IMG/VR virus record: IMGVR_UViG_3300001598_000040 | Span: 1 to 64,000 of that record | Strand: one strand, 5' to 3' | Length of the DNA stretch: 64,000 nucleotides | Source of the DNA: a virus | Lineage: Duplodnaviria > Caudoviricetes | In this document: in pieces, positions 36,714 to 42,309 of the stretch | Layout: every line of letters begins with the position of its first letter | Position numbering within the stretch: the stretch's first letter is position 1 | The notes under the pieces: model-generated | Databases searched by the model: none | Seen by the model: the letters and a program-made list of their open reading frames with translations, nothing else | Told to the model about the DNA's origin: nothing | Made by a program: the position numbers and the translations under genes

Positions 36714-39257
36714 TTAATATCTAAATATTACAATGTCTTTAATTTCATCGTCATATTGATATACATAAACAAAGGATTCAGTTCCTTCTGTAAATAATGA
36801 CTTAGAACCTGTTTTAGATTTAATATTTACTTTGCCGCCAGACGAATAATCAACCAAAGTATAGGTTATATTAGATTTAATTGTAATACCATCTTCTGCA
36901 GGATAATTATCTATATCTTCTGCTAAATAGAATTTATTATATTTAGCATCAACTACTCTATTTCCAATCTGAATAGCTTCAGCAGATTTAAATAATACAT
37001 CAAAATCTTTAACAACATCCTCTTTGGAATTACCTAATAATAAAACATCACCTTTATCTAAAGATGGTAAATCTTTATAATCATTATAGAATGTAAATGA
37101 TACTGATTTTCCTTTTTGTAAACCAGATACTAATAAAGCATCATCATCTTGATATTCAATATTACTAATTGAAGTTACAATAAATACATTATTATCTTCA
37201 ACTACTCTATCAAAATTATATCCAATAACAATAGTAACTTCATCTTCATCTTTTTCTGTTAAAGCAATAAAATCTAAATCTTCATCTTTATCATTAAAGA
37301 AATTATCAACAGAACCAATTTCAATATCACTATCTGTAATAACAGTAGCATCATTACAGATTGAGAATACTAATGTTGATTCATTAAAATCAGAAGCGCC
37401 ATAACTCATATTCTCAGCATCATAAACTTTAGAATTAGATGAATCATATGTTTTAGTTGAACCTTCAAAAAGATTTAATTTAGTAATTTCATTACCTCTT
37501 AGAGTAATATCAAATAGTGCGGAATTCACATTGCTCTTTTGAAGTTTTGTTCCTCCGAGCGCAGTTTGTAAATATTCATATACCTCTTCGTCAGAATCCG
37601 CAATCAATGTTTTTCCATCATACAATTTAGCTTTTGAAGCTAAAGTATATTTGTTAGTACCTTTTGATGTAACAACTTTTACTGTATACTCTTCATCTGA
37701 TGTATAGCCTGTTGATAATACTAAACCATAGTTAGTTCCAATTGAACCTGAAGTTGTATCATTATATACAATCTTTCCGTCCACATTTAAGTAGAATGTT
37801 CCACTTTCTCCTAACAAATCTTCTGGAGATTCATTAAAGAATGGTGATAATTCATAAGATTCACCTGCGATTGTAACGGTATCTTCATCGATATCATATG
37901 AAGTAACTGAGCCTGTAATAGTTTTGTCAGAAATGTATAAAATTCTGAAAGTTTCCATTTCAATTTCTGTAACGGTGTCATTAATACTAATGTCATAAGG
38001 ATCAATCTCCTTTCCGTTTTTAAATACTTTTACAGTATCTTCAGTTAAATCGATCTCAGATAAAATACCTGCGCCCTTAGCATCAAAGGTAATATATTCA
38101 TCATCAATATCAATAGCTTTTACTACTGCTTCATTTGTATAAGAAGTACCTATAATATAATCAATTTTATTATCATCATTATTATCAATAAATTGAATAT
38201 TTCCATTCTCTACATATGATAATAAATCTAAAGTATTATAAATATTAACTTCTTTATAATTAATAAAACTAATTACATTTTCATCTAATTTCAAATATGA
38301 AGGCTTTGAAGAATTATTTTCATAATAATAAATTTTACCATTCTCATCCGCATATTTATAACCAGCTTCCGCAATATCAGATACTGATAAATATAAATTA
38401 GATGTCTTTGTATCTTCTGCAACTGAAATTAAATCATCATCTTCATTTACATAAGCAATTACAGTAGTACCAAGATATGCACTCAAATCTTCTTTTGTAT
38501 TGACAGTAATATTATCATAATCTTTTGCATAAACACCATCATTATAAGTGTCTTTATAACCGTCAATAGATAAAGTAAAATTTGTATTATCATATCCATC
38601 TAAAATAGGTGCATCATATACAACACCGTGCCACACATCTACATCAAATACTTTAGATAACAAAGTATCATCAGATTTGGTATAAGATGTTTCACCATTA
38701 GAATTCCAACTATCTGCTTTAAACAATTGACTATTTAATGCGTTATAAATCAATTGAGCTAAATCTTTTCTAAGAATTGGTTTTCCAATAGCTACTGATA
38801 CATTTTTGTTTATTTTTTCTGAAGCTACGATGTTTAAATATCCTGACGGATAACCGCCACTCTTTTCTGCTAATACATCATAACCAAGTGCGCAACAAAC
38901 TACCTTTGCTGCTTGTTCATAAGTAACATTTTCCTCAGGTCTAAAAGTTCCATCTTCAAAACCATTAATAAGACCTAACTGCGCGCAGGTTGCAATATAT
39001 CCTGACGCCCAGTGTGATTCATCTACATCACTAAAATTAGTAGTAGATTTCTCAGGAACTTCCGCATTTAAAGTTCTTGTTACAATAGCAGTAAATTCTG
39101 CTCTACTTAACTCTTTCTCTAACTGTAAATCACCATTTTCATCGCCTTGTAAAATACCTAATCCAATGAGTAAGTCATCTTTAGAATCGGCATTTACTGA
39201 AAGTAGTGGAGTACAAGCTATAGATAAAGAGATAAGCACTCCTAAAAGTTTCTTCAT
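36714..39257 (-). CDS. Secreted S-layer-type protein with three N-terminal SLH domains (847 aa)
   Basis: Signal peptide MKKLLGVLISLSIACTPLLSVNA; SRAEF, FSDV...HWASGYI......G.INGF.DGTFRP...VTYEQA, RKDLAQLIYNAL; long acidic beta-rich body; AAGGAGG RBS. Confidence 0.9.
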   Translation of the reverse strand: MKKLLGVLISLSIACTPLLSVNADSKDDLLIGLGILQGDENGDLQLEKELSRAEFTAIVTRTLNAEVPEKSTTNFSDVDESHWASGYIATCAQLGLINGFEDGTFRPEENVTYEQAAKVVCCALGYDVLAEKSGGYPSGYLNIVASEKINKNVSVAIGKPILRKDLAQLIYNALNSQLFKADSWNSNGETSYTKSDDTLLSKVFDVDVWHGVVYDAPILDGYDNTNFTLSIDGYKDTYNDGVYAKDYDNITVNTKEDLSAYLGTTVIAYVNEDDDLISVAEDTKTSNLYLSVSDIAEAGYKYADENGKIYYYENNSSKPSYLKLDENVISFINYKEVNIYNTLDLLSYVENGNIQFIDNNDDNKIDYIIGTSYTNEAVVKAIDIDDEYITFDAKGAGILSEIDLTEDTVKVFKNGKEIDPYDISINDTVTEIEMETFRILYISDKTITGSVTSYDIDEDTVTIAGESYELSPFFNESPEDLLGESGTFYLNVDGKIVYNDTTSGSIGTNYGLVLSTGYTSDEEYTVKVVTSKGTNKYTLASKAKLYDGKTLIADSDEEVYEYLQTALGGTKLQKSNVNSALFDITLRGNEITKLNLFEGSTKTYDSSNSKVYDAENMSYGASDFNESTLVFSICNDATVITDSDIEIGSVDNFFNDKDEDLDFIALTEKDEDEVTIVIGYNFDRVVEDNNVFIVTSISNIEYQDDDALLVSGLQKGKSVSFTFYNDYKDLPSLDKGDVLLLGNSKEDVVKDFDVLFKSAEAIQIGNRVVDAKYNKFYLAEDIDNYPAEDGITIKSNITYTLVDYSSGGKVNIKSKTGSKSLFTEGTESFVYVYQYDDEIKDIVIFRY

Positions 39258-39308
39258 CCGAAGTCCTCCTTAAATATATATATTTAAAAAGTAGTGCGGG
39301 TACACTAC

Positions 39309-39530
39309 TTAATTAACAATATATGATTGTATGATAGTATAAATAGGAACGGTTGATTCAACATACAATTCTTTCCATTCCGCAGTATACATAGCTCCAA
39401 GAACAGATTTAGCATTTATTCTAAACTTATCTCCGTCTGTTAAATATACTTCACCATTTACTAATGAAACTGCGGCAACAAATGCATATATTTCTTTCAT
39501 AGTGTTTAATGCAATTTTATACGAATTCAA
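39309..39530 (-). CDS. HPr-family phosphocarrier-like protein lacking His15
   Basis: 73 aa, HPr-like layout with INAKSVLG (Ser46-type motif); no His in the sequence. Confidence 0.7.
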   Translation of the reverse strand: MNSYKIALNTMKEIYAFVAAVSLVNGEVYLTDGDKFRINAKSVLGAMYTAEWKELYVESTVPIYTIIQSYIVN

Positions 39531-39705
39531 TCAAATCATCCTCCTTTAACGGTTCAACAACCTTATAAAATAAATTAATAATTTCAAATGTTCTACAAGA
39601 CTCTAATTTCTTTCCTGCTTCACTTTTTCTAACTCCTAAAGATTTAAGAACTTGTATCATTTTACCCTTTGTCATCATCATATTTCTTCATTCCTTTCTA
39701 AAATC

Positions 39706-40316
39706 ATAAAATGATTTTATTACGATTTTAAATTAGACCTTCGCCTTGCAATTAAATATTTTCTATTTTCTTCAGTCACAGTGTAGATATATGTGAACTT
39801 ATAGCCGCTAAACCATAAGCTATATATCTAATGAATATTTCGCAATCCAACTTCGCACTTGTTGGGATGTTTACCAACAACTTTCACCCGTCATTCACAT
39901 AATTTGATACATTTTATCATAATTGTTAATTTACTCAATGTTATCGCCAATTTGGGCTACTCGAACTTTAAACTCATCTTATACTCTACTTTCATAGTAT
40001 CAACAGCGAACCTTATTATTGGTATTTCTTGAGTTTGCTATAAACTACCAATTTATAACCTTATCAAGATTATTCTCCACAGGAGCGTCTATTATTAAGG
40101 CGATGAGAATAATACTTTAAATAGCAATATTCAATTGTACATTCTACCAGAACTCTTTGATTTATACTCAAGCAATAACTATATCACTATAATTATTTTC
40201 ATATATACCAAGTATCCTTAGTATAAAATCCTATCCCTCTTTAAGGTAGAACTCTCAGCCGCATAACATTGCGGTTTACACTGAGTTAATTTAAAACCAT
40301 AATAAAATCATCTTAT
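39706..40316 (-). ncRNA. Candidate large structured ncRNA (~611 nt), ROOL/GOLLD-like
   Basis: No ORF in the track; ends 40316-40287 and 39735-39706 form a contiguous 30-bp helix with three G.U pairs only on the minus strand; many internal helices and GNRA loops; next to tRNAs. Confidence 0.8.
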
Positions 40317-40320
40317 AGTT

Positions 40321-40364
40321 TGGGAATTTAAGGAGTTGCACCTTCTGTTTCACTGGTATTCCCA
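40321..40364 (-). ncRNA. Mini tRNA-like element (acceptor stem plus T-arm only)
   Basis: UGGGAAU...AUUCCCA 7-bp stem enclosing AAGG-UGCAACU-CCUU. Confidence 0.45.
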
Positions 40365-40480
40365 TATTCGGGGTGGTTAACCCCGATTAATTTATCTTAG
40401 AAAGGATGATAAATTTTTATGGAGTTTTAAAGTCAACTAACTGCACATCTGTTGTCATAGGAAGTTTTGCTATTCCTTTA

Positions 40481-40557
40481 TGGGTGCGAGAACAGGATTT
40501 GAACCTGTGACCTTCTGATAATGAGTCAGACGAGCTACCAAACTGCTCCATCTCGCT
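40481..40557 (-). tRNA. tRNA-Met(CAT), initiator-like body with atypical features
   Basis: Full cloverleaf, encoded CCA, unpaired 1:72, fMet-like D arm; anticodon arm UCUGA-CUCAUUA-UCAGA. Confidence 0.88.
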
Positions 40558-40639
40558 ATATGTAAAGATGTGATAACCTTAACTAAAAGGGAGGATGCAC
40601 TATGGAAAACACATTTTATTTTTATCACATCTTCATTAC
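40558..40639 (-). ncRNA. Candidate paired-termini antisense RNA (5' leader of tRNA-Met)
   Basis: 12-bp perfect stem (40633-40622 with 40576-40565) closing a 45-nt loop containing UUCCAU...CCUCCCUUUU. Confidence 0.5.
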
Positions 40640-40645
40640 ATATAT

Positions 40646-40674
40646 ATTATATCAAAAATTTTTTTTAAAATCAA
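40646..40674 (-). promoter_or_regulatory. sigmaA promoter for the tRNA-Met/ncRNA transcript
   Basis: TTGATT-17 bp-TATAAT. Confidence 0.8.
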
Positions 40675-40803
40675 ATTTTTATATAATATATTTTTAAACA
40701 TCTCTAATCCGCACGATAGTCCGATAACTTGATGTTTTGAGTTTGTCGAAAGACTTGAGAAAAAAAATTTTTTTTGAAAGGAGGCATTTAAACTAGAAGC
40801 CTC

Positions 40804-40879
40804 TGGAGCTAGTGATAAGAATCGAACTTACAACATCCTCATTACAAGTGAGGTACTCTGCCTATTGAGCTACACTAGC
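40804..40879 (-). tRNA. tRNA-Thr(TGT)
   Basis: GCTAGTG/CACTAGC acceptor, CCTCA-CTTGTAA-TGAGG anticodon arm, TTCGA, CCA. Confidence 0.95.
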
Positions 40880-40885
40880 ATAAAT

Positions 40886-40973
40886 TGGAGGAAAGTGTGA
40901 GATTTGAATTCACGGAGGTATTACCCTCTACACATTAGCAATGTGTTGGTTTAAGCCGCTCACCCAACTTTCC
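40886..40973 (-). tRNA. tRNA-Ser(GCT)
   Basis: GGAAAGT/ACTTTCC acceptor, ACACA-TTGCTAA-TGTGT, long variable arm, CCA. Confidence 0.93.
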
Positions 40974-40977
40974 ATAT

Positions 40978-41053
40978 TGGTGAGAATGGAGAGGCTTGAA
41001 CTCTCAACTCCAACATTAAAAGTGTTGTACTCTGCCTATTGAGTTACATTCTC
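40978..41053 (-). tRNA. tRNA-Lys(TTT)
   Basis: GAGAATG/CATTCTC acceptor, CAACA-CTTTTAA-TGTTG, TTCAA, CCA. Confidence 0.95.
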
Positions 41054-41283
41054 GTGTGGGCGGTTGTGTGTTATACACTAAAGACTAACCGCCTTAGCCT
41101 ATTAAATATCTGCCAAGCGTTTCAAGCACTCTTTAGTTTCTATTTAATCAATAGAAACAATCACGCATAATCCATTAGTGCTATGGATGTTTGGACTCAC
41201 TCTAAGTAACTACGCCGCATTTCAGCTTTGCGTTCTTAAAGGATGTTGTGTCATTTTTAAATCGCACACACATTTTGCGATAT

Positions 41284-41367
41284 TGGTGCGGAAGGAGAGA
41301 CTTGAACTCTCACGACCGAAGTCTGCGGATTTTAAGTCCGCTATGTCTGCCATTCCATCACATCCGC
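41284..41367 (-). tRNA. tRNA-Leu(TAA)
   Basis: GCGGATG/CTTCCGC acceptor (one mismatch), GCGGA-CTTAAAA-TCCGC, variable arm, CCA. Confidence 0.92.
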
Positions 41368-41480
41368 AGATTTATAAGTCAACCATAAAGGAAAGTCAGA
41401 GTCCTTTTACTTTTACAACTTATTTGGACGATTAGGATACTTATATTAAAGTGTAGTTTCCTAAACAAACACTGTGATTA

Positions 41481-41735
41481 TTAATCATCAATCGTTTTTA
41501 CAACGAATACATCCCATACTTCTGGACCTTTAAATTCTACATACTCCTGATCGTCATAATCAATAGTTGAATATGTAAAATCATTTGTCATCCAATATTC
41601 AGTAAATTCTTTTTGAACTAATTCATCTCTATATTCTCTTGCCTTATCAATATCATTAAAAATTTTATCGCAACAAGTATTTACCATATCATCTAAATCT
41701 GTGTAATAAATGTGTTGTACTAAATATCTTTTCAT
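41481..41735 (-). CDS. Hypothetical phage protein
   Basis: RBS-preceded ORF. Confidence 0.55.
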   Translation of the reverse strand: MKRYLVQHIYYTDLDDMVNTCCDKIFNDIDKAREYRDELVQKEFTEYWMTNDFTYSTIDYDDQEYVEFKGPEVWDVFVVKTIDD

Positions 41736-41774
41736 AAATTTATAATCCTTTCTTAAATTATATCAAAAATTTTT

Positions 41775-42023
41775 TTAAGAGTCAATTTTTTCAATTGGAC
41801 ACCAATAAGTTACTTCTTCTGCTGGTAATAGTCTATCATTCACAACGAATCCGCAGAATTGTTTACCATCATTAAAGAAATCTTCTTCATATTGAGTAAC
41901 ATAATAACTTCCGTCATATGCAATTAATATATCATCAGATATATTACATATAAAATCTTCAACAAAAGATTTCTTCAGTGGAGGAAGTTCATTTTTAACT
42001 AATTTCCATTCCATTTTTAACAC
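41775..42023 (-). CDS. Small phage protein, DUF551-like (W..V...LP...V.YW.PI)
   Basis: EWKLVKNELP and EVTYWCPI termini. Confidence 0.55.
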   Translation of the reverse strand: MLKMEWKLVKNELPPLKKSFVEDFICNISDDILIAYDGSYYVTQYEEDFFNDGKQFCGFVVNDRLLPAEEVTYWCPIEKIDS

Positions 42024-42078
42024 TCCTTTAACTTAATTACATATATATTATATCATATATTTTTAAAAAAATCAAATG

Positions 42079-42309
42079 TTAATTTTTACCATTTTCTTCT
42101 GTGTTCTCAATCATAATCCAATATATATGAGAACCATAATCACAGTATTCAATATTATTTTCTATCCATCCTCGATAATATAATGCTTCTCTGCCTGTAG
42201 TCTTAACTACATAATCATATATAAATTTATTAATCGTATCTCTATTATCAAAAGAATTAAGTAAATTTTTTTTATCTTCCATAATGGAATATAAATATAC
42301 ATTATACAT
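42079..42309 (-). CDS. Hypothetical phage protein
   Basis: RBS-preceded ORF. Confidence 0.55.
   Translation of the reverse strand: MYNVYLYSIMEDKKNLLNSFDNRDTINKFIYDYVVKTTGREALYYRGWIENNIEYCDYGSHIYWIMIENTEENGKN

Follow-up and report, generated by a model that had tools for sequence, protein, structure and literature searches.

The ORF-free tract examined here, in the genome of an uncultivated phage, is almost certainly a phage-encoded ROOL RNA (RF03087) and an ordinary, full-length member of that family. Our window is the whole stretch of 64,000 nt that was analysed, positions 1 to 64,000 of the IMG/VR virus record IMGVR_UViG_3300001598_000040, a contig of 84,216 bp that is about 54% complete and carries a single ROOL copy. 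The ROOL covariance model matches the minus strand of the window from 40309 to 39716 with 271.2 bits (E 6e-61), 2.7 times the family gathering score of 99.1, and model positions 1-574 of 574 are covered, so that the copy is not truncated. When the whole window was scanned against Rfam 15, ROOL was the single non-tRNA match, and permissive filters applied to 39500-40500 brought up no other Rfam family at E<=1, GOLLD and OLE included. The RNA measures 594 nt by the model and 613 nt with its full closing helix P1, compared with a family average of 581 nt (PMC5737381), and its score falls near the bottom of the range for the full-length ROOLs that we collected (263-363 bits). An earlier, sequence-only reading of this DNA had described a large ornate RNA of the ROOL or GOLLD type, adjacent to tRNAs in a phage genome, had named a new large RNA class as its fallback and had proposed a covariance-model search as a check. 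The search upholds the ROOL part of that description, and because the match is strong and full length the fallback is excluded: the feature stays and its novelty goes, leaving a real member of a family already described.

Family membership, strand, conservation of the fold and the setting among phage genes and a tRNA array are all shown here. In 39706-40316 neither strand has an ORF of more than 57 aa, in agreement with the original description of the tract as free of ORFs. The minus strand folds to -156.1 kcal/mol (z -5.6 relative to dinucleotide shuffles), and the plus strand folds more weakly, to -105.1 kcal/mol (z -2.9). Direct reading of the termini confirms the 30-bp closing helix that had been reported, with RNA positions 40316-40287 pairing to 39706-39735 through 30 contiguous pairs, 27 of them Watson-Crick and three G.U on the minus strand. 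These three read as A.C on the plus strand, and together with the asymmetry in folding energy they bear out the assignment to the minus strand. An inverted-repeat search reports the same arms. One extra U.G pair (40317/39705) brings P1 to 31 contiguous pairs, and three further A-U pairs are possible past one C.A mismatch (to 40321/39701).

Long closure of this kind is a trait of the ROOL family, typical rather than special to the window copy. Among viral homologues taken with 10-12 nt of flank, 10 of 14 have 16-31 contiguous terminal pairs (with 15 in L021, 12 in L008 and 8 in L019), and with single mismatches tolerated, 15 of 18 measured homologues have 27-36 terminal pairs (the exceptions including L019 with 21 and L030 with 15, the latter value being unreliable); the 30-bp closure in the window is therefore typical. 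In those 15 homologues P1 runs 6-14 nt (5') and 9-17 nt (3') past the end of the Rfam model, and the outer P1 pairs covary (alignment helix 1). The RF03087 model is thus shorter than the true closing helix.

To compare the interior of the RNA with the family fold, the Rfam consensus brackets from the cmscan alignment were projected onto the window copy. Residues stand on both sides of 152 of the 159 consensus pairs; the other seven all belong to one small hairpin, near model positions 443-466, that is unaligned. In the register of the model 118 of the 152 pairs are canonical, and 136 (89%) are canonical once register slips of 1-2 nt are allowed per helix, with every major helix present. Helix-by-helix inspection accounts for the difference: 18 of the 34 non-canonical pairs turn canonical on such slips, mostly in AU-rich helices, and the naive projection with its 34 non-canonical pairs was accordingly superseded as a measure of fit. 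The conserved motifs were all found, namely the GGAUAC loop, AAUAGACGC, GUAUAA, AGUAGCCC, the GAAUGACGGGUGAAAGUU core, the GGCGAAGG hairpin and the GUGA and GAAA tetraloops. Table 1 gives the positions of the elements of the RNA and of its surroundings.

Table 1. Elements of the window ROOL RNA and neighboring features on the same strand (window coordinates).
Feature	Position	Strand	Basis
ROOL as delimited by RF03087	39716..40309	-	covariance-model match
Full ROOL unit, including P1 extension past the Rfam model (613 nt)	39705..40317	-	31 contiguous pairs
P1 closing helix, 5' strand	40287..40317	-	repeat search, fold
P1 closing helix, 3' strand	39705..39735	-	repeat search, fold
5' hairpin, CUCAG/CUGAG with CCGCA/UGCGG and conserved GUG internal loop	40254..40285	-	10/10 consensus pairs canonical, covary
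Three-hairpin domain closed by GUUCUA/UAGAAU, with GGAUAC loop hairpin, GUGA-tetraloop hairpin (40173-40198) and short A-rich-loop hairpin	40141..40252	-	consensus fold
Short apical hairpin CUCC-UGU-GGAG, length variable across the family	40075..40085	-	alignment
Long hairpin, loop AUUGGUA (40052-40046) complementary to junction UACCAAU (40024-40018)	40027..40069	-	7 contiguous nt
GAAA-tetraloop hairpin	39985..39998	-	helix 7 covaries
Variable linker, 60 nt, enclosed by GCCC/GGGU	39892..39951	-	unalignable among homologues
Most conserved core motif GAAUGACGGGUGAAAGUU	39879..39896	-	invariant columns
Long 3' hairpin UAGAUAUAU...AUAUAUCUA	39784..39830	-	15/18 pairs canonical at +1 register; helices 10, 11 covary
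Conserved AGGC-GAAG-GUCU hairpin just inside P1	39735..39746	-	consensus fold
tRNA-like minihelix, 44 nt, abutting P1 (candidate processing handle)	40321..40364	-	inferred
tRNA-Met(cat), last full tRNA of the array	40481..40557	-	tRNA search
Promoter-like TTGATT-17-TATAAT with upstream TG, before tRNA-Met	40646..40674	-	consensus match alone
tRNA-Thr(tgt), Ser(gct), Lys(ttt), Leu(taa)	40804..41367	-	tRNA search

Six internal helices had been named by the sequence-only reading, and five of them belong to the family fold: CUCAG/CUGAG, CCGCA/UGCGG, UUCUACC/GGUAGAA, UUGUUGG/CCAACAA and UAGAUAUAU/AUAUAUCUA all match the consensus, either exactly or within a slip of 1-2 nt. Both of the GNRA loops it had pointed out, GUGA (40187-40184) and GAAA (39993-39990), are consensus tetraloops. 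The one helix that does not stand is AUUAUUCUC (40113-40105) with GAGAAUAAU (40077-40069), which contributes 0 of its 9 pairs to the consensus. In the homologue alignment 40.9% of its cells are paired, equal to shuffled or slid controls, and it shows no covariation. It also competes with a covarying long-range helix, UUAUUCUCAUC/GAUGAG (GAUGAG at about 39978-39973), in which its 5' arm falls. The AUUAUUCUC/GAGAAUAAU pairing is chance complementarity.

Homologues were gathered by scanning viral contigs with the core motif GAAUGACGGGUGAAAGUU, which yielded 21 loci; 17 of these are ROOL by Rfam, 14 of them at full length. A MAFFT alignment of the window copy and the 14 full-length viral ROOLs, not fitted to any structure, has a mean column identity of 54% over its 15 sequences, with 58 invariant and 39 near-invariant columns. 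These columns include the GAAUGA.GGGUGAAAGUU core, AGUAGC.C, the AAUA of the AAUAGACGC junction and the A-A of the GGAUAC loop. RNAalifold predicts 81 pairs from this alignment, and for 68 of them at least one sequence carries a compensatory double change. Cells are paired at 87.9%, compared with 38-52% after the 3' partners have been displaced by 1-3 columns; double-change cells number 316 vs 110 in shuffles, the covariation score is 0.710 vs 0.255, and none of 500 shuffles reached any observed value, a margin that is very large even though the tested structure was derived from the consensus of the same sequences, which favors the fit somewhat. The fold is thus supported by covariation among homologues, the second check that the sequence-only reading had proposed.

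Outside the viral contigs, the core motif matched genome contigs 37 times, where about 70 matches are expected by chance for 17 bases in 596 Gb, and 4 of the 12 loci run through Rfam were ROOL. All four of these bacterial copies come from MAGs of rumen or gut Clostridia, and three lie within tRNA arrays. In blastn (distant mode) the RNA had no match among 50,697 phage records, and there is therefore no close copy in cultured phage.

The surroundings of the RNA are those of a phage genome, as had been claimed, with two topoisomerase II subunits and a NinI-like metallophosphatase encoded nearby and all nearby genes on the minus strand. Upstream of ROOL lie five same-strand tRNAs, which in transcription order are Leu(taa), Lys(ttt), Ser(gct), Thr(tgt) and Met(cat); a spacer of 159 nt follows tRNA-Met, and then comes ROOL. 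The topoisomerase subunit is less than 40% identical to anything in the 50,697 phage records, and a search of metagenome contigs with the upstream phosphatase found no syntenic relatives. Within about 20 nt downstream of P1 there is a ribosome-binding site with an ATG (39681), which opens an ORF of 54 aa (39681-39517) with a sub-threshold match to DUF2639, followed by an ORF of 73 aa and then by an 847-aa SLH-domain protein. This last protein (36714-39257, minus strand) combines an S-layer homology domain (Pfam SLH, 68.9 bits) with a weak endolysin-family match, and no relatives of it were found in viral contigs. Together with the ROOLs of the Clostridia MAGs, the SLH protein and the G+C of about 30% suggest a clostridial host. 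In one of the homologous loci (L012:3430-3480, minus strand) we also saw a borderline 6A RNA (RF02925; 41.8 bits vs a threshold of 41.2) inside a phage tRNA array.

A single terminator-like site was found within 39300-42100, and it lies on the plus strand. The stretch that separates tRNA-Met from the minihelix listed in Table 1 contains a G+C-rich palindromic hairpin, CGGGG...CCCCG (40368-40386), which has a terminator score on the plus strand only and no U-run after it on the minus strand. Because no minus-strand terminator separates the tRNAs from ROOL, co-transcription is the simplest reading: a minus-strand transcript would carry ROOL together with the upstream tRNAs, and its most economical start would be the promoter-like site that precedes tRNA-Met.

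Of the 17 viral loci, 14 have same-strand tRNAs next to ROOL, as do three of the four Clostridia MAG loci. Measured from the real ends of P1 at seven junctions, the gap to the extended P1 is 0-1 nt for an upstream tRNA (L015, L018, L038) and 3-6 nt for a downstream one (L006, L008, L038, L054). The cleanest tRNA-ROOL-tRNA case is a yak-rumen Eubacterium MAG (L038:1063-1837), in which tRNAs abut P1 on both sides, 0 nt upstream and 3 nt downstream. We found no statement of this geometry in the ROOL papers that we consulted, though it may nevertheless be known.

In the window, the place next to P1 is taken by the 44-nt minihelix, which pairs a 7-bp acceptor-like stem (UGGGAAU/AUUCCCA) with a T-arm-like hairpin (AAGG-UGCAACU-CCUU) and is without a D or anticodon arm. 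In six of seven positions the hairpin agrees with the T-loop pattern, its closing G-C pair is retained, and the element ends 3-4 nt before P1, in the slot of the full tRNAs of L015, L018 and L038. ARAGORN and the Rfam tRNA model both fail to recognize it as a tRNA, and its fold energy is unremarkable (z -0.87). A pattern for its architecture, written after the element had been seen, had no other match on either strand of the window and none in 10 shuffles, and a minihelix abutting ROOL occurs in no homologue of our sample. Truncated tRNA-like elements of 42-60 nt are found on the ROOL strand at 2-3 kb from ROOL in three loci (L012:3823-3882, L021:574-615, L022:6287-6341); they have good T arms and acceptor stems and receive no ARAGORN call.

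Minihelices made of an acceptor stem and a T arm are classical minimal substrates of RNase P and RNase Z, and a role as a 5' handle is therefore plausible. The 5' end of ROOL would then probably be cut by tRNA-processing nucleases at the minihelix that abuts P1. The broader proposal, that the tRNA-processing machinery sets the termini of ROOL and that a degenerate 44-nt minihelix is kept here purely as a 5' processing handle, may be correct but is on balance unlikely. The geometry of tRNAs abutting P1 suggests a cheap and concrete biochemical test of how ROOL might be released from tRNA-array transcripts.

Among the other explanations for the tract, a decayed or non-assembling ROOL relic, which has drifted in an AT-rich phage genome and lost its cage, is very unlikely. 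The bit score at the low end of the set would suit such a relic, as would the several AU-rich helices that need a slip of 1 nt and the one small hairpin that is missing, but the copy retains all major helices, its core motifs and the two GNRA loops, as well as the 31-bp P1 and a 7-nt loop-junction complementarity, and drift would lose pairing, whereas 89% of the aligned consensus pairs are canonical with slips. Even less probable is that the tract acts in cis on the small ORFs downstream of it (39681-39517 onward), as a long, structured regulatory 5' leader instead of a free RNA. P1 does end about 20 nt before the RBS and ATG at 39681, with no terminator between it and that ORF, and the 3' strand of P1 can form an alternative hairpin of 13 bp with the sequence just downstream (39697-39732, minus strand), immediately before the RBS; this hairpin could couple ROOL folding to translation of the 39681 ORF or could be chance in AT-rich sequence. 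The downstream neighbor in homologues, however, is usually a tRNA or an unrelated gene rather than any conserved ORF, and the ROOL of L. salivarius exists as a free RNA that is stable (PMC5643018).

The remaining possibilities have next to no probability. A new large structured RNA class, distinct from ROOL and GOLLD, is contradicted by the full-length match at 2.7 times the gathering score and by the 58 invariant columns that the window copy shares with 14 other ROOLs. A DNA-level element built on inverted repeats, such as a replication origin or packaging site, could account for the long inverted repeat at the ends of a non-coding, AT-rich tract, but its mismatches are G.U on one strand only and the covariation passes through G.U intermediates and follows the RNA family model, so that the chance of this explanation is negligible. 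Size, tRNA adjacency and phage context would fit GOLLD too (PMC5737381), yet with no match to GOLLD or OLE at E<=1 in 39500-40500 under permissive filters, the probability that the RNA belongs to either is virtually nil.

As a ROOL, the window RNA can be set against the solved structures of the family. Cryo-EM has resolved ROOL cages (Kretsch et al. 2025; PMC12286853), and the cage studies of Wang and Ling are known to us as summarized in PMC12990946 and PMC12515178. An interaction between a loop and a junction, predicted as a pseudoknot from covariation, proved by cryo-EM to be a conserved intermolecular kissing loop (PMC12286853), and the corresponding junction and loop are described in PMC12990946. 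We infer that the complementary AUUGGUA and UACCAAU of the window copy represent this published contact. Matched variants of the complementarity occur in 11 of 14 homologues (GGUA/UACC, GGA/UCC, GGAGU/ACUCC, GAA/UUC), and since it is not significant in each sequence by itself relative to shuffles of such short AU-rich segments, its weight comes solely from this variation across sequences. A subclade of three (L018, L015 and L008; alignment columns 316-362) is without the UGG/CCA loop-junction complementarity and has GCAA-type (CGCAAG-type) loops, which suggests a different contact at that interface.

By analogy with the solved homologues, the window ROOL should assemble into the homo-oligomeric nanocage that has been published. 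Its monomer would fold flat, closed by the 31-bp P1, and six or eight copies (a D3 hexamer or D4 octamer) would assemble through loop-junction kissing and A-minor contacts. The predicted product is a hollow cage made of RNA only, with a diameter of about 28 nm, in which the 60-nt variable linker would point inward; in the solved structure (PMC12286853) the counterpart of this linker lies disordered within the cage. The short apical hairpin was considered as a predictor of hexamer versus octamer and was dropped, as most homologues are similarly short and the rule is not established.

In L. salivarius, ROOL is as abundant as rRNA, and its deletion has no clear phenotype (Cousin et al. 2017; PMC5643018); none of the papers searched, which run up to late 2026, reports a function for the family. 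Tentatively, ROOL may have a role in infection that is linked to translation, either holding or shielding tRNAs or ribosomal components or serving as a decoy for host RNA-targeting factors, a guess for which the constant association with phage tRNA arrays is the sole basis. One more phage ROOL adds little alone, and what this copy contributes is a low-GC example from an uncultivated phage without a close cultured relative.

Three families of large RNA invite comparison with the window RNA. OLE resembles ROOL as a large ornate bacterial non-coding RNA that multimerizes, but it belongs to extremophilic Firmicutes, is associated with protein and is dimeric, and its model has no match here. GOLLD is closer, being like ROOL a large ornate RNA of phages and prophages that adjoins tRNAs and forms RNA-only cages, but it is unrelated to the window RNA in sequence and secondary structure, is often longer than 800 nt and likewise has no model match. 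With ROOL as defined by RF03087 and described by Weinberg et al. 2017 (PMC5737381) and Cousin et al. 2017 (PMC5643018), the window RNA shares a full-length match, size, core motifs, multistem architecture, a long closing helix, the variable linker, the loop-junction complementarity, a phage location and a same-strand tRNA array. Nothing of substance sets it apart from the family, the differences being the one small hairpin of the 3' domain that is unaligned and several AU-rich helices that are one register off. Relative to its homologues, it is distinguished by a P1 that is abutted upstream by a 44-nt tRNA-like minihelix rather than by a full tRNA.
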